A DNA stretch of 44,719 nucleotides. Source: a virus. Taxonomy: Duplodnaviria; Heunggongvirae; Uroviricota; Caudoviricetes. Under the pieces are notes generated by a model that was given only the letters and a program-made list of their open reading frames with translations, did not search any database and had not been told where the DNA came from. Shown one piece after another: positions 28,257-44,719 of this stretch; position 1 is the first letter of the stretch, and the number at the start of each line of letters is the position of its first letter. The DNA lies in IMG/VR virus record IMGVR_UViG_2737471862_000003, positions 1 through 44,719 of that record; one strand, written 5' to 3'. Both the position numbers and the translations under genes were made by a program.

Positions 28257-28412
28257 AGGATGATCCTTTTTCTATGTGAATCATCACCACTGCTGACGCC
28301 AATCAGTATGGTGGTGAACTGTGCAGGGTTGGCGTAACCGGGAAAAAGGAACCGGCGCGGATCGCTCCGCCCCCACACAGCCCACCATTGAGATGTGACA
28401 GTGCAAACGACA

Positions 28413-28434
28413 ATAAAAAAGACGCTGGCGCGTC
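28413..28434 (-). terminator. tR'-like intrinsic terminator downstream of the late promoter
   Basis: GACGC-TGGC-GCGTC hairpin plus a T-run on the minus strand, about 60-70 nt downstream of the candidate late promoter. Coordinates approximate. Confidence 0.55.
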
Positions 28435-28495
28435 TGTTGTCGCCTTTTTCATCCGGGACGCCAATCCCGACGCCAGATTTTGCTGGCGCGTGAGG

Positions 28496-28525
28496 AATAT
28501 AGCCCCGGACAATGTGTCTGGTCAA
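28496..28525 (-). promoter_or_regulatory. candidate late promoter pR' (TTGACC-N18-TATATT) overlapping the Q stop
   Basis: The sigma70-like -35/-10 pair is read directly from the minus strand immediately 3' of Q. The position matches lambdoid pR'/qut. Confidence 0.45.
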
Positions 28526-31102: not shown

Positions 31103-31258
31103 TTACTCCTCAGATTCGTAAGCTGTGAAGACAGCGACCTCCGTCTGGCCGGTTCGGATTCGTACCTCGCAGAGGTCTTTCCTCGTTACCAGTGCCGTCA
31201 CTATGACGGTTAAACAGATGACGATCAGGGCGATTAACATCGCCTTTTGCTGCTTCAT
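31103..31258 (-). CDS. hok: Hok/Gef-family type I toxin
   Basis: MKQQKAMLIALIVICLTVIVTALVTRKDLCEVRIRTGQTEVAVFTAYESEE is essentially the HokD/RelF sequence. AAGGAG ribosome-binding site. Confidence 0.9.
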   Translation of the reverse strand: MKQQKAMLIALIVICLTVIVTALVTRKDLCEVRIRTGQTEVAVFTAYESEE

Positions 31259-31315
31259 AGCCTGCTTCTCCTTGCCTTTCGGCACGTAAGAGGCTAACCT
31301 AGATTTGCCGTTCAT
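31103..31315 (-). CDS. mok: Mok (modulator of killing) overlapping reading frame
   Basis: An in-frame N-terminal extension of 19 codons begins at an upstream ATG, as in hok/mok/sok loci. Confidence 0.6.
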   Translation of the reverse strand: MNGKSRLASYVPKGKEKQAMKQQKAMLIALIVICLTVIVTALVTRKDLCEVRIRTGQTEVAVFTAYESEE

Positions 31316-31360
31316 AGATTGAGCCTCAGATTAATGTTAAGCGTCTTGCCGGACGCGTAA
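31285..31360 (+). ncRNA. sok: predicted Sok-like antisense RNA (position inferred, not located)
   Basis: In hok/sok systems the antitoxin RNA is encoded antisense to the mok translation-initiation region. Here the position is inferred from that architecture only; no promoter or terminator was located. Confidence 0.25.
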
Positions 31361-31595
31361 TGTTAACTGGGGCTTTTCTCTGTCTGCCTTACAGTGGCAT
31401 GCCCGAGGCAGACAGCCTCAAGCACCCGCAACAATCTTACCGACACCGATAAGAAAACGCTATTTTTATTGCCAGAACCTTCTGCCCAGGCTAATGTATC
31501 CGCGTCAGAACGGCGCAATGCGCTCGCCTGAGATACGTTTACTTGTCATTGGTGGCAACAGATAACGGCAATTGTTGTTTCTGTTTGTTTCCTTC

Positions 31596-37652: not shown

Positions 37653-37711
37653 TGTTCACTTAAAACGAACATAAGTCAACACCTCGAGGAATTGTTAGTG
37701 TTCACTGAACG
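37653..37711. promoter_or_regulatory. OR-like operator region: TGTTC-N9-GAACA inverted repeat plus a second TGTTCACT-containing site between divergent promoters
   Basis: TGTTCACTTAAAACGAACA at about 37653-37671 and TGTTCACTGAAC at about 37699-37710. TTGACT lies on the minus strand for the cro-like gene. Confidence 0.55.
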
Positions 37712-37725: not shown

Positions 37726-38115
37726 ATGGACATGAGAAAAAAGCAATACGACACCCCGCTAGCAGAAAGGTTAGATGCGATCTCTCAACAGCATCATTTA
37801 AGTGGTTCAGATTTAGCGCGTATCGCTGGTGTAGGTCGTTCATCAGTCAACGCATGGAAAAAAAGAGGAACAATCAGTAAAGATTCCGCAGCCAAAATTG
37901 CAGAAGCCACAAACGTTTCCCTTTCTTGGCTACTGACAGGGAAAGAAGAGACAAATAGAGAAGCGCTTGATGATGACGAGAAGGCCCTGCTTGATGTTTA
38001 CAGAAACCTGCCACCTGTAGAACGTAGAAATATGCTGGCAGCTTTTCAAATGCGACTTCAAAAACTGACCGAATTTTACTCAGAATACGTCGACCCAATA
38101 ACACGACAAAAATAA
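37726..38115 (+). CDS. prophage repressor (CI-like, XRE helix-turn-helix, no peptidase domain)
   Basis: 129 aa with helix-turn-helix LSGSDLARIAGVGRSSVNAWKKRG, divergent from the cro-like gene and followed by a strong terminator. Confidence 0.8.
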   Translation: MDMRKKQYDTPLAERLDAISQQHHLSGSDLARIAGVGRSSVNAWKKRGTISKDSAAKIAEATNVSLSWLLTGKEETNREALDDDEKALLDVYRNLPPVERRNMLAAFQMRLQKLTEFYSEYVDPITRQK

Positions 38116-38180: not shown

Positions 38181-38209
38181 TTGACTTTTGTTCACCTAGA
38201 GAGAACAAT
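38181..38209 (+). promoter_or_regulatory. pL-like promoter with overlapping operator (TTGACT ... TGTTC-N9-GAACA)
   Basis: TTGACTTTTGTTCACCTAGAGAGAACAAT has the same architecture as the minus-strand cro promoter (TTGACTTATGTTCGTTTTAAGTGAACAAT). Confidence 0.55.
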
Positions 38210-38283: not shown

Positions 38284-38436
38284 ATGGATACTATCGATCT
38301 TGGCAACAACGAATCTCTGGTATACAGCGTGTTTCCCAACCAGGACGGCACATTCACCGCGATGACGTATACCAAAAGCAAAACGTTTAAAACCGAAACT
38401 GGCGCACGTCGCTGGTTAGCCAGAAATACTGACTGA
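38284..38436 (+). CDS. hypothetical 50 aa protein, first gene of the early-left operon
   Basis: ATG with a GAGG ribosome-binding site (MDTIDLGNNESLVYSVFPNQDGTFTAMTYTKSKTFKTETGARRWLARNTD). Not in the ORF track because it is under 60 aa. Its stop overlaps the next ORF. Confidence 0.55.
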   Translation: MDTIDLGNNESLVYSVFPNQDGTFTAMTYTKSKTFKTETGARRWLARNTD

Positions 38437-38444
38437 TGAGGTTA

Positions 38445-39080
38445 ATGATGGAATTTAAAGATTTACCGCTATCAATCCAGGAGATTGCAGCACACACACT
38501 ACGTCAACGTCTGAACGAAGCTATGGCTGAATCTGCAACGAAAGAAACCATTGATAACATGGCTCGTAATGTACACGATGCGTTTACCGGATTGTATTTC
38601 TGTGCGTCTGTAAATAAACACGACCCAGAGAGTGTGGCAAAGAAAATTGCAGAAACGACAGTGCAAAACATCAATACGAAACCAACCGAAGACGAAATTG
38701 ACCAGCCTGCCAGTGAACAAAAAAAAGAAAAATCGCCATATGCGGGAAACATGTTTGTTTATGACAAACTTATCCGAATTCGTGGCGAAATTCCGACTGA
38801 ATACCTGGCAAGAATTCACCAGACATTACTTAAAAATCTGGAAACGGAAGTATTTGATGGCAACACCAACGGTTCCTTCGTGGTATCAGCTCTCACAAAG
38901 GAGTGGGATAAAGATAATCGCTGGAATGTTGCTACATGGTTATTCAGCAACAAAGCTTCTGCCCTGGAAGCTGCGGCGTGTATTTGCGACCTGCTAAGGA
39001 CAGACCGCAAATACAACCTGGATGTGTATAGCTATATTTATGCTGAACACTATCCGCTATGGATTAACTTTAACTGGTAA
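38445..39080 (+). CDS. hypothetical 211 aa protein (AT-rich cargo in the early-left operon)
   Basis: ORF with a GAGG ribosome-binding site. GC content is lower than in the flanking phage genes. No family recognised. Confidence 0.6.
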   Translation: MMEFKDLPLSIQEIAAHTLRQRLNEAMAESATKETIDNMARNVHDAFTGLYFCASVNKHDPESVAKKIAETTVQNINTKPTEDEIDQPASEQKKEKSPYAGNMFVYDKLIRIRGEIPTEYLARIHQTLLKNLETEVFDGNTNGSFVVSALTKEWDKDNRWNVATWLFSNKASALEAAACICDLLRTDRKYNLDVYSYIYAEHYPLWINFNW

Positions 39081-39290: not shown

Positions 39291-39684
39291 TTTATCCTCC
39301 ATTGAGGTTACTGGTTGAGAATGGAGACCACACGTGACAGCGTGTTGTCGTGCGCCGGACACGGATAAGAATCCGGCACTGATAGTTTATGAAAGGATAT
39401 ATCCCTGAAAAGTCAGGGCATAACACGGAAGCGCACGGCGGAGGTGTCTTTTCCTTAGAAGGCTTGTCGTTAGATTTCTTCGACCGTGCGCTTCCGGTTG
39501 TGGCACTCCGCGAAATGGCGCGGCGGTAAGTATGGCGGGGTTATTCCTTACCCCCATTGGTGGCACCGGGTTGTCAGGTTGACCATACGCCTGAGTGACA
39601 ACCCCGCTACAACACTCCATGTTGATTTGTACCTTTGGCGGCATCAGTTTCATTGCTGGCTGATGTCCGCCCTTTTTAAAGTGA

Positions 39685-39853: not shown

Positions 39854-40042
39854 ATGGAAACATTATTACCAAACGTTAATACGTCTGAAGGTTGTTTTGA
39901 AATTGGTGTCAGTATCAGTAACCCTGCATTTACTGAAGATGCCATTAATAAGAGAAAACACGAACGGGAGTTATTAAATCAAATATGCATTGTTTCAATG
40001 CTGGCCCGTTTACGTCTGATGCAAAAAGGATACTGGCAATGA
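39854..40042 (+). CDS. hypothetical 62 aa protein
   Basis: ATG with a GAGGA ribosome-binding site. Translationally coupled (ATGA) to the next gene. Confidence 0.5.
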   Translation: METLLPNVNTSEGCFEIGVSISNPAFTEDAINKRKHERELLNQICIVSMLARLRLMQKGYWQ

Positions 40043-40230
40043 ATACAGCATTCGCACTCGTTCTGACAGTTTTTCTTAATACAGGCGAACCACTTGACCT
40101 TATTGTTGATATACGTGACTCAATGGAAGAATGCATGGCTGCCGCAGATGAACAGAAAATTCCCGGTAACTGTTATCCGGTCGATAAAGTTATTCGCATG
40201 AATAATAACGAAGTCCCGGCAGGGCTTTAA
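40039..40230 (+). CDS. hypothetical 63 aa protein with N-terminal hydrophobic (signal/transmembrane-like) segment
   Basis: MNTAFALVLTVFLNTGEPLDL..., with an AAGGA ribosome-binding site. Confidence 0.5.
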   Translation: MNTAFALVLTVFLNTGEPLDLIVDIRDSMEECMAAADEQKIPGNCYPVDKVIRMNNNEVPAGL

Positions 40231-40321
40231 ACCAGCACAGTAATAAATATCCGGTTTCATTTTTATATGCCAGCAATGGGCAGGGATTTGTTCACCCTAA
40301 AAATGGTTATGAGGTTTATCA

Positions 40322-42757
40322 ATGAGCACTGATAAAGAAGAAATTGCACTATATTACGAAGCCAAAAATGACAAAGTCAGAAAACGTCTTGGGATTAAAG
40401 GCGGTTTTTACTGGCGCACAGCAAAAAAATTATCGGTTGCAATATCACGCGGTGTTGTCGCAATGGACGATGCCGGATTTGACGAAGAGGATTTTAAAAA
40501 ACCTGTTCGCGTCCATTTACCCGTTGTGAATGACCTTCCTCCGGAAGGCGTGTTTGATATCGAATTCTGCAACCGATACGAAAAAGGCGGGGAAGATGGT
40601 ATCACAATGGTACTTATCGCGCCCTCGCCCTCTGTTCAGGATAAACCAGCCAGCACTGACAATACCAACGTCAACGGCGAAGACATGGCTGAGATTGAGG
40701 AGAACATGCTCCTGCCGGTTTCAGGTCAGATTCTGCCTGTTCGATGGCTGGCACAGCACGGCAGCGAAAAACCGATCACACACGTTTCGCGGGACGAACT
40801 GCGCGCATTACATAACGCACAGGATGAAAAACTTCCCGCCGTTACCGCGCTGGCTATCTCAAATAAAGCAGCGCAACTCGAACCGCTGGAGATTCGCGAT
40901 CTCCACAAACTGGTGCGAGACACTGACAAAGTTTTCCCCGCCCCCGTAAATTCGGACCTGGGACTGATAACCTCTTTTATCGAAGCATACCTGGACGCCG
41001 ACTACACCGATCGCGGTCTGCTGACAAAAGAGTGGATGAAAGGAAATCGTGTTTCGCGTATCACCCGTACGGCTTCCGGTGCAAATGCCGGTGGCGGGAA
41101 CAAAACCGATCGCAATCCGAATTTAGTACACACCTTCGATACGCTGGATGTGGAGATTGCAGCAGCCACACTTCCGATGGATTTTAATATTTATGAAATT
41201 CCGGGCAGCGTTTATCGTCGCGCAAAAGAAATCGTCCTGAAAAGAGAAAGTCCGTTCAAAGAATGGTCCGCAGCACTTCGCGCAACCCCGGGTATTCTGG
41301 ATTATTCCCGCGCCGCTATTTTTGCACTTATCCGGAGCGCTCACCCTGAGTTTTATCACTACCCGGGACGCCTTCAGGGGTATATCAACGCCCACTTAAC
41401 GGAGACTGATCACGAGAACCCCAGCAAGGAAACTCTCACTGCTGCACGACATACACCGGAAAAAGACATCCTGGAAGAAGTTAACCGCGAACTGGCTGCT
41501 GAACGCGAAACAGAAGAAGAAAAAAATAATGAGGAAAAATCACAACCGTCTGACGCAATGGCAGATGAACAGGCAACGACTGAAGCAATGGGACAGGATA
41601 CAACTGAATATCGCCAGGACACACAATCGCTGGATACTCAGGCACAGATAAATCCGGTTAATCAGGTAAAAGTTACCGCTGACGAAGTAAACAAAATTAT
41701 GCAGGCAGCCAATATCAACCAGCCTGATGCCGACAAAATACTGGCAGTCCATCGCGGTGAATTCGTTGACGGAATTAGCGACCCGAATGATCCGAAATGG
41801 GTTAAGGGGATTGAAACCCGCAATTCTGTGAACCAGAACCAGCCCGAATCGGAACAAAACAGCCAAAATGCGTTACAAAACGAGCCAGAAACGAAACAGC
41901 CTGAACCAGAAGAGCAACAAGAACCGGAAAAAGTCTGCACCGCCTGCGGTCAGACCGGCGGCGACAACTGTCCTGACTGTGGCGCGGTGATGGGCGACGC
42001 AACATACCAGGAAACATTCGATGAAAAAAATCAGGCTGAAGTTCAGGAAGATGATCCGGAGGAAATGGAAGGCGCTGAACATCCACACAAGGAGAACACT
42101 GGCGGCAATCAGCATCACAATAGCGATAATGAAACTGGCGAGACGGCAGATCACTCAATTAAGGTGAACGGTCATCACGAAATCACATCCACCAGCAGGA
42201 CGTGTGACCATCTAATGATCGACCTTGAAACCATGGGAAAAAATCCTGATGCCCCGATCATCTCAATAGGTGCAATATTTTTCGATCCGCAAACCGGAGA
42301 TATGGGACCGGAATTTAGTAAGACTATCGATCTGGAAACTGCTGGCGGAGTCATTGATCGGGACACCATTAAATGGTGGCTTAAGCAATCACGCGAAGCG
42401 CAATCTGCCATTATGACCGATGAAATCCCGTTAGATGATGCACTACTGCAATTGCGGGAATTTATCGACGAAAACTCCGGTGAATTTTTTGTTCAGGTCT
42501 GGGGTAATGGGGCCAACTTCGACAACGTGATTTTACGCCGTTCATACGAACGACAGGGTATCCCCTGCCCGTGGCGCTACTGCAACGATCGCGATGTACG
42601 CACAATCGTTGAGCTGGGGAAAGCCATAGACTTCGATGCCAGAACTGCTATCCCATTCGAAGGTGAGCGCCATAATGCACTTGATGACGCTCGTTACCAG
42701 GCAAAATACGTTTCAGCTATCTGGCAAAAACTGATCCCGAGTCAGGCTGATTTTTAA
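40322..42757 (+). CDS. large early protein with C-terminal DEDDh (DnaQ-like) 3'-5' exonuclease domain
   Basis: 811 aa. The C-terminal 184 aa contain DLET (Exo I), WGNGANFD (Exo II) and H-x4-D (HNALDDARY, Exo III) motifs. Upstream are an acidic Glu/Gln/Asn-rich linker and a C-x2-C-x9-C-x2-C zinc ribbon. It occupies the recE position next to xis/int. Confidence 0.75.
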   Translation: MSTDKEEIALYYEAKNDKVRKRLGIKGGFYWRTAKKLSVAISRGVVAMDDAGFDEEDFKKPVRVHLPVVNDLPPEGVFDIEFCNRYEKGGEDGITMVLIAPSPSVQDKPASTDNTNVNGEDMAEIEENMLLPVSGQILPVRWLAQHGSEKPITHVSRDELRALHNAQDEKLPAVTALAISNKAAQLEPLEIRDLHKLVRDTDKVFPAPVNSDLGLITSFIEAYLDADYTDRGLLTKEWMKGNRVSRITRTASGANAGGGNKTDRNPNLVHTFDTLDVEIAAATLPMDFNIYEIPGSVYRRAKEIVLKRESPFKEWSAALRATPGILDYSRAAIFALIRSAHPEFYHYPGRLQGYINAHLTETDHENPSKETLTAARHTPEKDILEEVNRELAAERETEEEKNNEEKSQPSDAMADEQATTEAMGQDTTEYRQDTQSLDTQAQINPVNQVKVTADEVNKIMQAANINQPDADKILAVHRGEFVDGISDPNDPKWVKGIETRNSVNQNQPESEQNSQNALQNEPETKQPEPEEQQEPEKVCTACGQTGGDNCPDCGAVMGDATYQETFDEKNQAEVQEDDPEEMEGAEHPHKENTGGNQHHNSDNETGETADHSIKVNGHHEITSTSRTCDHLMIDLETMGKNPDAPIISIGAIFFDPQTGDMGPEFSKTIDLETAGGVIDRDTIKWWLKQSREAQSAIMTDEIPLDDALLQLREFIDENSGEFFVQVWGNGANFDNVILRRSYERQGIPCPWRYCNDRDVRTIVELGKAIDFDARTAIPFEGERHNALDDARYQAKYVSAIWQKLIPSQADF

Positions 42758-42818: not shown

Positions 42819-43088
42819 ATGAGCGAACAGTACCTGATAACGCTCGATGAGTGGAAGCCAAAACGGTTCAGTCTCCCAATAACAAACACTACCCTGGTGA
42901 AATACGGAAAACTAGGATACATCGTTCCAAGACCACAAAAAATTCGTGGGCGTTGGCTGATAGATCGCCGAGCAGTATTTGTTGGACCTGGTGAAACAGG
43001 AATTGCGCCGGAAATTCATACTGGCGATGATGATGCACTGAAGGAGATTTTAACTCATGTCACCGAGGCCACGAAAAAACAGCACTGA
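42819..43088 (+). CDS. xis: excisionase-like protein
   Basis: Small basic protein immediately upstream of and overlapping int (MSEQYLITLDEWKPKRFSLPITNTTLVKYGKLGYIVPRPQKIRGRWLIDRRAVFV). Called by position and composition. Confidence 0.6.
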   Translation: MSEQYLITLDEWKPKRFSLPITNTTLVKYGKLGYIVPRPQKIRGRWLIDRRAVFVGPGETGIAPEIHTGDDDALKEILTHVTEATKKQH

Positions 43089-44175
43089 CGTAGCCGGACT
43101 TTACGAAAAATTTGATCGCAGAACTGGCAGAGTTTACTACCAGTATAAAAACCCTGTGACTGGAAAATTTCACGGGCTCGGAACAGACAAAGGTAAGGCA
43201 GAAAAAATCGCTTCCACAGCCAATCAGCGAATAGCTGCAGCAGAGGCTGAATATTTCATGCGCAAAATTGATGAAAGTCCGTCAGCAACAAAGCGTCGGG
43301 GTATCAGATTAAAGGCATGGGTTGATCGATATCTGAAAATACAGGACACGCGACTGAAAAATGGAGATATTGCAGCTACAACTCACAAAGAAAAAGCCCG
43401 AATGGCTGCATACCTGGTTTCCCGTCTGGGAAACCACCCATTGAAAGAACTGGAAGTAAGAGACTTTGCATTAATACTGGATGAGTGGCTGGATAAAGAC
43501 ATGGTCAGCACAGCGAGAGTAAATCGTGGATTATGGGTTGATATTTATAAAGAAGCACAGCATGCAGGGGAAGTTCCTCCTGGATGGAATCCTCCGGAGG
43601 CTACCCGTAAACCGATCCCTAAAGTAACTAGAGCCAGGCTCACCCTGGAAGACTGGCAAAAAATTTACAACGCAACGCCTGAAAAACACTTTATCCGTAA
43701 CGCAATGCTTCTTGCGATTGTTACTGGTCAGCGCCGTGATGACATTTGCCACATGCGTTTTTCAGATGTGTGGAACGAACACTTGCATATCACCCAGGGA
43801 AAAACCGGAATGCGTCTGGCGTTACCGCTTACACTACGCTGTGATGCCATTGGGATAACGTTAAAAGAAGTTATTGATGGGTGCCGAGACAGAATATTAA
43901 GTCCATATCTAATCCATAGTCGGCACCAGAAACAACCAAAGCCGATGAGTAAAGACAACCTGAGCGACTACTTTGCCAAAGCACGGGATCTGGCTGGGAT
44001 AACTCCACCAGCAGGAAAAACTCCGCCAACATTTCATGAACAACGCTCCCTGTCAGAACGATTGTACCGCGCGCAGGGTATTGATACAAAAACATTACTG
44101 GGACATAAAGTCCAGGCAACCACCGATCGTTATAACGATACTCGTGGTCAGGAATGGGTTAAATTGGTTGTTTGA
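43057..44175 (+). CDS. int: tyrosine-type site-specific integrase (lambda Int family)
   Basis: 372 aa. The C-terminal catalytic region (…AIVTGQRRDDICHMRFSDV...HITQGKTGMRLALPL...PPTFHEQRSLSERLY...LLGHK...TDRYNDTRG.EW) parallels lambda Int. AAGGAG ribosome-binding site. Confidence 0.9.
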   Translation: MSPRPRKNSTDVAGLYEKFDRRTGRVYYQYKNPVTGKFHGLGTDKGKAEKIASTANQRIAAAEAEYFMRKIDESPSATKRRGIRLKAWVDRYLKIQDTRLKNGDIAATTHKEKARMAAYLVSRLGNHPLKELEVRDFALILDEWLDKDMVSTARVNRGLWVDIYKEAQHAGEVPPGWNPPEATRKPIPKVTRARLTLEDWQKIYNATPEKHFIRNAMLLAIVTGQRRDDICHMRFSDVWNEHLHITQGKTGMRLALPLTLRCDAIGITLKEVIDGCRDRILSPYLIHSRHQKQPKPMSKDNLSDYFAKARDLAGITPPAGKTPPTFHEQRSLSERLYRAQGIDTKTLLGHKVQATTDRYNDTRGQEWVKLVV

Positions 44176-44251: not shown

Positions 44252-44719
44252 CTAATCTTGATCAGGTTCCTGCTTAGAATAATGTTTTCCAACAATAAAT
44301 GCCGTAACCAATGCAACAAGATCTATTGAAACGAGAGTTCCGGCAAGAACTGTCTCCCCCATGACGCCAAAGACAGTGGCAGCTAAGATGATCAATATTG
44401 CCAACCAAAAAGCCTTTGTTTGACCATCTCTGGCAATATCAATGCTATCAGCCACTGTTTTATGGCGATGAGCCTGCTCTTTTTCGGTCAACTCAACAAG
44501 TCGATTTGCAAGCCCAGGCACCAGTTGATCATACTTTTTAAGCATTGAAGGTGGCGGAACAGGCCCCTGAAAATGCTGGCAAACAATAGCCCGCACCTGC
44601 GGACTATCCAAAACCCTGTTTAAGACCTCTGGATTTTCGATTACTCGAGAAACCAGTTCATTATCCTTTTGTTCTTCACAAGTGAGTTTGGTGTTCTCAC
44701 TTTCTTTTTGATCTGGCAT
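44252..44719 (-). CDS. membrane protein with C-terminal transmembrane helices (possibly the flanking host gene or a prophage-end gene)
   Basis: 155 aa ORF whose ATG sits exactly at the window edge, so it may be N-terminally truncated. C-terminus is hydrophobic (AFWLAILIILAATVFGVMGETVLAGTLVSIDLVALVTAFIVG). Confidence 0.5.
   Translation of the reverse strand: MPDQKESENTKLTCEEQKDNELVSRVIENPEVLNRVLDSPQVRAIVCQHFQGPVPPPSMLKKYDQLVPGLANRLVELTEKEQAHRHKTVADSIDIARDGQTKAFWLAILIILAATVFGVMGETVLAGTLVSIDLVALVTAFIVGKHYSKQEPDQD

Follow-up and report, generated by a model that had tools for sequence, protein, structure and literature searches.

A RecE-type N-terminal region joined to a DEDDh exonuclease domain in an early operon of an Escherichia coli prophage

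The gene and its operon

The gene under study occupies positions 40322..42757 of a 44.7-kb stretch of DNA (the window, by which the whole analysed stretch is meant), and all features described below lie on its + strand unless given as divergent. According to the list of open reading frames and to matches with Pfam families PF06630 and PF16473, it encodes an 811-aa chimeric exonuclease made up of a RecE N-terminal region, a linker and a DEDDh domain, while a Shine-Dalgarno-like GAGG (40311..40314) can be read 7 nt 5' of its ATG start. The product is 100% identical to WP_040073359.1 of E. coli OkiPb01716, for which RefSeq gives the name '3'-5' exonuclease' and public collections already hold both precomputed Pfam domains; the novelty attributed to the protein in a first-pass annotation of this DNA was therefore overstated. 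The host element is a complete E. coli prophage at potB/potC, and near-full-length copies of the protein were detected in about a quarter of the complete E. coli genomes (1275 of 5426). In the literature on Rv2179c, RecE, DEDDh nucleases and prophages no description of a fusion between a RecE N-terminus and a DEDDh domain was found. Production of a free C-terminal domain from M632 via an internal ribosome-binding site was considered and appears unlikely, as the sole AGGA is situated 14 nt 5' of that ATG, a spacing too long to convince.

The gene is preceded in its operon by dicB (39854-40042) and a ydfD-like DUF1482 gene (40039-40230), both assigned by the RefSeq annotation of the identical record and by Pfam (DicB and DUF1482, respectively), and is followed by xis (42819-43088) and int (43057-44175), identified by PHROGs (excisionase and integrase) and RefSeq annotation, in the order originally reported. 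The same arrangement (dicB-ydfD-exo-xis-int) is found in phages Tritos and 640R1, and Salmonella prophages carry a stand-alone 189-aa homologue directly upstream of xis-int. A search for a DicF RNA upstream of dicB returned a sub-threshold variant only, below the Rfam gathering score. The consensus scan, on which the assignment depends, places a candidate early-left promoter (TTGACT-17-AACAAT, 38181..38209) just past the terminator of the repressor gene, with identical hexamers at a divergent cro-side site (37679-37651); the promoter scan gave no convincing promoter belonging to the exonuclease gene itself. Gene order and promoter scan together suggest that the operon is early and under repressor control, and hence speak against expression of the gene in a lysogen. 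The carrier can with some confidence be regarded as a lambdoid prophage with Qin/Rac-type immunity, of which this gene would be the modular early-operon nuclease.

The RecE-type N-terminal region and the module junction

BLASTP alignment with Rac RecE revealed 56% identity over 556 aligned residues (aa 58-613 against RecE 50-591). Additionally, PF06630 (RecE N-terminal region) was matched with an E value of 4.3e-28, and NCBIfam model NF007259, the exodeoxyribonuclease VIII equivalog, was matched over model positions 1-602 of 877, scoring 897.7 bits where the cut-off is 1269. On the basis of this similarity, residues up to ~613 are genuinely homologous to RecE, and the earlier term 'RecE-position protein', while apt for the place in the operon, understated a relationship that the profile searches it had proposed for this region make apparent.

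Structure prediction, for which a diverse alignment was assembled from representatives of a 50%-identity library, returned a confident fold for the N-terminal core (aa 1-375; 40322..41446), in which a small alpha/beta domain (aa 1-100) precedes a helical one (aa 120-375). No solved structural relative was matched by this model, and the RecE N-terminal core appears to constitute an independent module of confidently predicted fold. The core is followed by an acidic, Q/N-rich linker (41447..42178) that is common to RecE, varies among homologues and, by composition and pLDDT (under 50 for most of aa 410-620), is mostly predicted to be disordered. Within it lies a zinc ribbon (C539-x2-C542-x7-C550-x2-C553; 41936..41980) that is nearly identical in Rac RecE. 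The first-pass annotation had recognised this ribbon but had given its middle spacer as x9 rather than x7, and its presentation of ribbon and acidic linker as features of the new domain does not hold, since both fall within the region nearly identical to Rac RecE. A Dam methylase from a P2-like prophage has a C-terminal tail that is 64% identical to the zinc-ribbon peptide over 28 aa.

The similarity to recE, both of DNA and of protein, ends at a module junction spanning aa 609-613 (42146..42160): BLASTP similarity to RecE stops at aa 613, equivalent to RecE residue 591, and in the DNA alignment all similarity is lost after 'GCAGATC'. No similarity to RecE was detected by BLASTP past its residue 591, nor was there a Pfam match to PD-(D/E)xK or DUF3799 families. 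The DEDDh domain thus replaces the RecE PD-(D/E)xK nuclease exactly where the latter would begin, and the C-terminal domain does not belong to the PD-(D/E)xK lambda-exo/RecE fold, Pfam assigning it to PF16473 instead. With the PD-(D/E)xK domain absent and the NF007259 score below its cut-off, the protein falls outside the RecE/exodeoxyribonuclease VIII equivalog, and the routine label 'exodeoxyribonuclease VIII' misnames the catalytic domain encoded by this gene, which is very common in E. coli prophages.

The DEDDh domain and its relatives

The DEDDh 3'-5' exonuclease domain, of the Rv2179c-like/DexA family, was delimited by Pfam to aa 630-801 (42209..42724) and is supported by AlphaFold2 and PDB comparison. 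PF16473 (Rv2179c-like) matches it with an E value of 1.7e-67 and 227 bits (gathering threshold 27) over model positions 2-177 of 177. The three DnaQ-family motifs occur where they had first been noticed: Exo I as DLET at aa 634 (D634 and E636; 42221..42229), Exo II as WGNGANFD from aa 727 (catalytic D734; 42500..42523) and Exo III as HNALDD from aa 784 (H784-x4-D789; 42671..42688). Among 47 homologues D634, D734, H784 and D789 are invariant, while E636 is retained in at least 90%. By its motifs and its predicted RNase H-like fold the 811-aa protein is a member of the DEDDh superfamily, its 3'-5' polarity being family-derived.

The AlphaFold2 model of the domain (pLDDT 89.1), obtained along with the profile match as the first-pass annotation had recommended, is closest to T4 DexA, the best PDB match by Foldseek (8kel, E 8.5e-11, TM 0.73), followed by RNase T, REXO2 and Orn; including DexA, E values range from 1e-10 to 1e-6 with TM scores of about 0.7. 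Comparison by hhalign also gave a significant sequence match to DexA (probability 98.8%), with the same DEDDh catalytic set. The hhalign alignment ends at DexA 163, short of the acidic residue D169, for which D770 and D772, by residue counting, would be candidates at approximately the right distance from H784. DexA (PDB 8KEL/8KEN) is a phage-encoded 3'-5' DNA exonuclease, and the gene described here is likewise phage-borne with a predicted activity of this kind; in contrast, DexA is a stand-alone protein of 227 aa with extra loops, belongs to a lytic phage and shares only ~22% identity. The founder of PF16473, Rv2179c of Mycobacterium tuberculosis, after which the family is named, is a chromosomal, stand-alone protein to which exoribonuclease activity has been ascribed, and the family model built around it is the one so strongly matched here.

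Annealase linkage and probable role

In Rac, recE ends in a PD-(D/E)xK nuclease domain and is followed by recT, as the first-pass annotation had stated, upstream of xis-int. The two proteins have their N-terminal ~610 residues in common, zinc ribbon and acidic linker included, and each gene is the last large one of a leftward early operon near xis-int, but Rac RecE carries a 5'-3' nuclease accompanied by RecT, whereas the present protein carries a DEDDh domain of predicted 3'-5' polarity without RecT. Indeed, tblastn of the 44.7-kb window for RecT, Bet, lambda-Exo or RecE-nuclease similarity produced nothing better than E 0.09, an annealase is neither annotated nor detectable in the complete prophage, and with xis and int directly downstream there is no space for such a gene. 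Annealases outside the RecT and Redbeta families were looked for by annotation and Pfam scans in this window, and none turned up. Across 80 IMG/VR loci, a RecT-family gene accompanied none of the 61 DEDDh-type and all six PD-(D/E)xK-type loci, a further 12 loci having no nuclease domain at all (an IS66 element was confirmed in locus L040). Similarly, RecT, Bet, Exo and RecE-nuclease genes were missing within 6 kb of all 80 loci from species-representative genomes, where the integrase gene begins 250-750 nt downstream in 25 of 29 fused forms. The fusion is conserved over about a dozen enterobacterial genera, and with RecT-family genes missing from all 141 DEDDh-type loci examined (61 viral and 80 genomic) the absence of a RecT partner claimed for this gene is borne out; lack of an annealase is a trait of the whole DEDDh-type family and no accident of this prophage.

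On balance, we favour the view that the gene encodes a modular early-operon nuclease, a DexA-like 3'-5' DNA exonuclease of early lytic growth built on a RecE N-terminal module, and not a recombinase. Once the prophage is induced or a cell infected, transcripts from the leftward promoter, which the repressor controls, would run through dicB and ydfD into the exonuclease gene. The C-terminal domain would then strip nucleotides off free 3'-OH ends by two-metal catalysis, and the N-terminal module may serve for delivery or docking as a unit common to several proteins. DNA is the most probable substrate, because the closest characterised relatives (T4 DexA and E. coli EcD) are DNA exonucleases and because the same N-terminal module is otherwise borne by DNA nucleases. 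Given its family-derived 3'-5' polarity and the fact that a single-strand annealing protein is never linked to it, the protein would not be expected to form a two-component recombinase; more likely, its task during lytic growth would resemble that of DexA, with linear DNA or the 3' ends of DNA being trimmed or destroyed for scavenging, for the processing of ends or to exclude competing DNA. The earlier suggestion of anti-defence, host takeover or defence in place of recombination fits the evidence as a possibility.

That the protein is nevertheless a recombination exonuclease, partnered by a host factor or by an annealase that escaped recognition, appears distinctly unlikely. It shares its operon position and N-terminal module with RecE, and the prophage encodes RusA; however, none of the 141 DEDDh-type loci holds a RecT-family gene, the annotation of the complete prophage shows no annealase, the window lacks RecT-family similarity, and Pfam gave no match for the one sizeable unassigned product of the early operon (214 aa). 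Moreover, a 3'-5' exonuclease removes the 3' tails used by annealases and RecA. Polarity alone cannot dismiss a recombination-related role, since T4 DexA is reported to have a part in double-strand-break processing and intron homing. A different possibility is defence of the HREX type, whereby the hydroxymethylcytosine DNA of superinfecting T-even phages would be selectively degraded and the lysogen protected. Its model is EcD of E. coli, a stand-alone exonuclease of family PF16473 reported in 2025 that, like DexA, was shown to be a DNA 3'-5' exonuclease, digests T4 DNA while sparing unmodified DNA and, when expressed from a plasmid, protects against T4 (PMC12153337). EcD (HAK9828821.1) was compared by way of an EcD-like protein inferred from published primers and the stated position of A78, which by BLASTP is 38% identical to the C-terminal domain over 183 aa with all catalytic residues in common. 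Both belong to the same Pfam family and to prophage early operons, but EcD is a stand-alone 189-aa protein of a P2-like prophage, encoded beside dam, and 5hmC specificity is reported for it. The present protein has the homology to DexA and EcD and their catalytic residues. C754 (42581..42583), however, by hhalign and BLASTP, aligns with DexA W152, which has been proposed to recognise 5hmC (PMC12153337), and with the matching Trp that EcD retains. The equivalent Trp is absent here in two independent sequence alignments (at 22-38% identity), the column being W, Y or C among close homologues. Considering also that the gene lies in a repressed early operon without a convincing promoter of its own, that EcD protection came from a plasmid while EcD itself sits in a P2-like early operon, and that a PADLOC run on the 811-aa protein gave no match, we regard defence of this type as unlikely.

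An equally unlikely reading is that of an RNA exonuclease trimming RNA 3' ends, be it Rv2179c-like, TONDO-like in blocking RNA phages, or engaged in phage or host RNA processing. The exoribonuclease annotation of the PF16473 founder, the name '3'-5' exoribonuclease' borne by many RefSeq relatives and the strong structural matches to RNase T, REXO2 and Orn make an RNA substrate possible, but the best sequence and structure matches of known activity are the DNA exonucleases DexA and EcD, and the N-terminal module is fused elsewhere to DNA nucleases. Pfam RNase_T (PF00929), which we take to be the family of ISG20 and hence a proxy for ISG20-like proteins, scored 20.3 bits, under its cut-off of 24. 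TONDO nucleases resemble the present protein in being prophage-borne and in combining a DEDDh domain with an auxiliary domain of unassigned function; however, they represent another, ISG20-like DEDDh subfamily (ISG20 being placed in NCBI CDD cd06127), target the 3' ends of RNA phages and were recovered in a screen that took in candidates below 500 aa only (PMC13344964). Very improbable, finally, is a decaying remnant without function: many relatives are truncated by IS elements, a nuclease domain is wanting in the loci noted above and the K-12 relative ydfE is a pseudogene, yet the reading frame is intact here, the catalytic residues vary little or not at all, and both the 1275 E. coli genomes with near-full-length copies and the spread over a dozen or so genera speak against decay.

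RecE/RecT is a standard recombineering tool, yet the 600-residue N-terminus of RecE has no assigned function, this being described as still unknown (PMC11611040). Rac RecE is further reported to degrade msDNA and trigger retron-Sen2/Eco9 (bioRxiv 10.1101/2020.06.22.160242). The N-terminal module occurs elsewhere with PD-(D/E)xK domains, without any nuclease, and as a nuclease-less protein beside gam-bet-exo. Sequence and structure model suggest a portable, well-folded unit that nature has combined with nucleases of either polarity or with none; the all-or-none link to an annealase offers a concrete comparative handle on its job. Tentatively, and with rather low probability, aa 1-375 might be an autonomous targeting module that brings interchangeable nucleases to one cellular or DNA target, the DEDDh variant serving counter-defence or competitor exclusion rather than recombination. 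If so, the interchangeable partners would be a 5'-3' PD-(D/E)xK nuclease with RecT, a 3'-5' DEDDh nuclease without RecT, or none, and comparison of the variants would reveal what the RecE N-terminus, long without a known function, does. Were the DEDDh variant a defence or counter-defence nuclease, it would be relevant to phage-host and phage-phage competition in E. coli, Shiga-toxin strains among them.

A second fusion type is represented by the 823-aa YdfE-type exonuclease of Tritos, which occupies the same position behind dicB-ydfD and is ~93-98% identical from aa ~448 onwards (linker, zinc ribbon and DEDDh domain), but whose N-terminal ~250 residues are of another, YdfE type. The K-12 Qin pseudogene ydfE, of which the N-terminal part alone survives, cut by IS2, was considered as a fragment of a RecE-type N-terminus; it showed no BLASTP similarity to this and corresponds instead to the N-terminus of the Tritos-like 823-aa fusion.

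Domain architecture of the exonuclease

The open reading frame at 40322–42757 (+), which had been singled out in the first-pass annotation, is real and encodes 811 residues from an ATG start with a GAGG sequence 7 nt before it. Pfam analysis of its product identified two domains, PF06630 (Exonuc_VIII, residues 56–189) and PF16473 (Rv2179c-like 3'-5' exoribonuclease domain, residues 630–801; E-value 1.7e-67). The NCBIfam exodeoxyribonuclease VIII equivalog covers residues 1–613 only and, because only positions 1–602 of its 877 are matched, the protein remains under the cut-off of that model. Similarly, BLASTP against K-12 Rac RecE revealed 56% identity across residues 58–613 (RecE 50–591) and no similarity beyond, and the similarity to recE at the DNA level continues across both zinc ribbon and acidic linker before ending abruptly after 'GCAGATC' (approximately nt 42146–42160). 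The nuclease domain of RecE comprises residues 564–866 (PMC11611040); since similarity ends at RecE residue 591, the exchange takes out the conserved body of that domain. The zinc ribbon and acidic linker reported previously are indeed present, but the ribbon has the spacing C-x2-C-x7-C-x2-C rather than x9 and, as both lie in the RecE-homologous part, neither is new to this protein.

The three exonuclease motifs described in the first-pass annotation were all found (DLET at 634, WGNGANFD at 727 and HNALDD at 784), and across 47 homologues D634, D734, H784 and D789 never vary and E636 is almost invariant. In an AlphaFold2 model of residues 620–811 the mean pLDDT was 89.1, and the top Foldseek match of the C-terminal model in the PDB was the phage T4 exonuclease DexA (8kel; E-value 8.5e-11, TM 0.73), followed by RNase T and then by REXO2 and oligoribonuclease. 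Likewise, phmmer related the protein to 8kel (E-value 4e-6) and hhalign related its C-terminal domain to DexA (98.8% probability). The domain is thus clearly not of the PD-(D/E)xK fold but of the DexA type by all three comparisons; the earlier observation was correct, as was its structural interpretation. These data show the protein to be a chimera in which an intact DEDDh domain of the DexA/Rv2179c-like type follows a RecE N-terminal module.

By sequence comparison, the 823-aa protein of phage Tritos (locus L004:3641-6112) has an N-terminus of a second type, but its linker, zinc ribbon and DEDDh domain are about 93–98% identical to those of the window protein. The K-12 Qin pseudogene ydfE (locus L198:4079-4999) shares 99% identity with residues 1–256 of the Tritos protein, and so constitutes an IS2-truncated remnant of a Tritos-type nuclease.

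Module exchange and annealase linkage

Relatives of residues 1–560 are rare, amounting to only 249 among 1.84 billion cluster representatives. The 84 relatives of at least 450 aa end in a DEDDh domain (15), a PD-(D/E)xK domain (24) or no recognisable nuclease (45), and no Pfam domain was detected in the tails of the 10 scanned among these 45. The conserved core of the module extends from residue ~20 to ~370; the linker varies, and only about a fifth of the sequences have residues in the zinc-ribbon columns. In one IMG/VR locus (L077:5647-9419), the gene for a 676-aa RecE-N-type protein without a nuclease domain lies immediately before gam, bet and an exo gene of the YqaJ type, and therefore the module is also found next to a lambda Red system as a protein of its own. 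The RecE N-terminus behaves as a module in its own right, with a confidently predicted fold, and is swapped between nucleases of opposite polarity.

The absence of a RecT partner, as initially proposed, is borne out by the annotation of the complete prophage, which contains no annealase, and by tblastn of the window with three RecT-family proteins, a lambda-type Exo and the RecE nuclease domain, which returned no match (best E-value 0.09). Linkage was then surveyed in 80 IMG/VR loci encoding closely related N-terminal regions. A RecT-family gene accompanies none of the 61 loci in which this region precedes a DEDDh domain, in contrast to all six in which it precedes a PD-(D/E)xK domain (nominal Fisher p-value 1e-8, not a true probability because the loci are related). 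The single nuclease-less locus followed by gam-bet-exo carries bet, and the 12 loci in which no nuclease domain was recognised (L040 among them has a confirmed IS66 element) carry no RecT-family gene. A second survey covered 80 species-representative genomes with the DEDDh domain: long fusions of 641–851 aa with RecE-type N-termini are present in 29, spanning about a dozen enterobacterial genera, and stand-alone proteins of 182–235 aa in about 45. The integrase gene starts 250–750 nt downstream in 25 of the 29 fusions, and in Salmonella prophages a stand-alone 189-aa homologue lies directly 5' of xis-int. RecT, Bet, Exo or a RecE nuclease was not found within 6 kb of the DEDDh gene in any of the 80 genomes. 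Annealase linkage therefore tracks nuclease type, and its absence is a family rule for the DEDDh variant among the loci surveyed. This linkage, together with the module exchange, is of greater interest than the original focus of the first-pass annotation.

The zinc ribbon and following 'GDATY' peptide (41936–42019, residues 539–566) share 64% identity across 28 aa with the C-terminal tail (residues 294–321) of a Dam methylase (L115:5187-6167, - strand), whose gene neighbours an EcD-like exonuclease gene in a P2-like prophage. This sequence likeness suggests a small portable module common to unrelated phage DNA enzymes.

Early-operon context and proposed function

The window comprises a complete lambdoid prophage integrated between potB and potC; the exonuclease gene belongs to its leftward early operon, and its immunity is of the Qin/Rac type. 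Its order is HTH repressor (37726–38115 in the gene-order annotation; no peptidase domain), terminator and promoter-like site, DUF1391, a 214-aa protein, dicB, ydfD-like DUF1482, exonuclease, xis and int. The repressor and cro-like genes lie between two divergent promoter-like sites that have the same hexamers (TTGACT-17-AACAAT), namely the candidate early-left promoter at 38181–38209 (+) and the candidate early-right promoter on the cro side at 37679–37651 (-).

The exonuclease gene is thus shown to reside in the early-left operon and never to be linked to an annealase in the loci surveyed. Its expression would follow induction, because the site at 38181–38209 matches the cro-side hexamers and recE is silent in Rac lysogens. 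The protein would then degrade from 3' to 5' by two-metal catalysis, probably acting on DNA ends, and would serve to trim DNA ends, scavenge or exclude, not to recombine by single-strand annealing. That it is an active 3'-5' exonuclease is likely and that its substrate is DNA is reasonably probable, while the proposal as a whole, from chimera to non-annealing role, is favoured on balance.

The nearest functional work, from 2025, concerns DexA and its E. coli homologue EcD, characterised as 3'-5' DNA exonucleases; EcD expressed from a plasmid reportedly breaks down 5hmC DNA and confers protection from T4 (PMC12153337). We identified an EcD-like 189-aa protein through the published primers of that study, the stated A78 being present; it is 38% identical to the window DEDDh domain, and its gene (L115:6401-6991, - strand) lies in a P2-like prophage early operon with dam adjacent (int, cox, ..., exonuclease, dam, ..., gpA). 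The word "prophage" occurs nowhere in the main text of that paper, which presents EcD as 'bacterial defence'. DexA W152, the proposed 5hmC-stacking residue (PMC12153337), aligns at the sequence level with C754 of the window protein, and therefore the 5hmC specificity is not simply transferable; defence by a 5hmC-recognising (HREX-type) exonuclease is an unlikely role. An RNA exonuclease is equally improbable. Prophage DEDDh domains with auxiliary domains, the ISG20-like 'TONDO' nucleases, can block RNA phages (2026 preprint, PMC13344964) and share this prophage-borne layout, but no evidence supports membership of the window protein in that group. Recombination with an unseen partner is more doubtful still; the sole sizeable uncharacterised product between repressor and exonuclease is the 214-aa protein (38436–39080, +; phrog_2151, a PHROG of unknown function), which gave no Pfam match. 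A dead gene, set against the intact reading frame and conserved catalytic residues, is very improbable.

Prevalence and other prophage features

The window protein, known here from sequence and models, is a variant of two established families that is widespread and already carries an annotation. Copies of near full length, spanning at least 80% of the gene, are present in 1275 of the 5426 complete E. coli genomes, and the copy in strain OkiPb01716 (NZ_AP042701.1) is 100% identical. RefSeq names the protein '3'-5' exonuclease' or 'exonuclease', and older phage records 'exodeoxyribonuclease VIII'; a literature search found no paper on the RecE-N/DEDDh fusion or on its lack of RecT.

Additionally, a DicF-like RNA 5' of dicB (39624–39672, +) scored 38.7 bits, short of the 48 bits set as the Rfam gathering score; about 8 nt of the annotated phage Tritos DicF are absent from it, and it overlaps a terminator-like hairpin (39640–39667). 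Matches at the Rfam gathering level were IS009 RNA (41–239, -), C4 antisense RNA (28307–28502, -), together with isrK and its a1/b1 target, and sok antitoxin RNA (31253–31427, -), which adjoins hokD. The ECs1072-family phage gene (36276–36731, +) is a pseudogene with an internal stop according to the identical RefSeq record. Between int and potC, the gene for a DUF2335 membrane protein and a small ORF (44252–44719, -, continuing past the window end) are missing from the corresponding junction in phage record 640R1, and the DUF2335 protein weakly matches PD-T4-6 in PADLOC (E-value 0.002).
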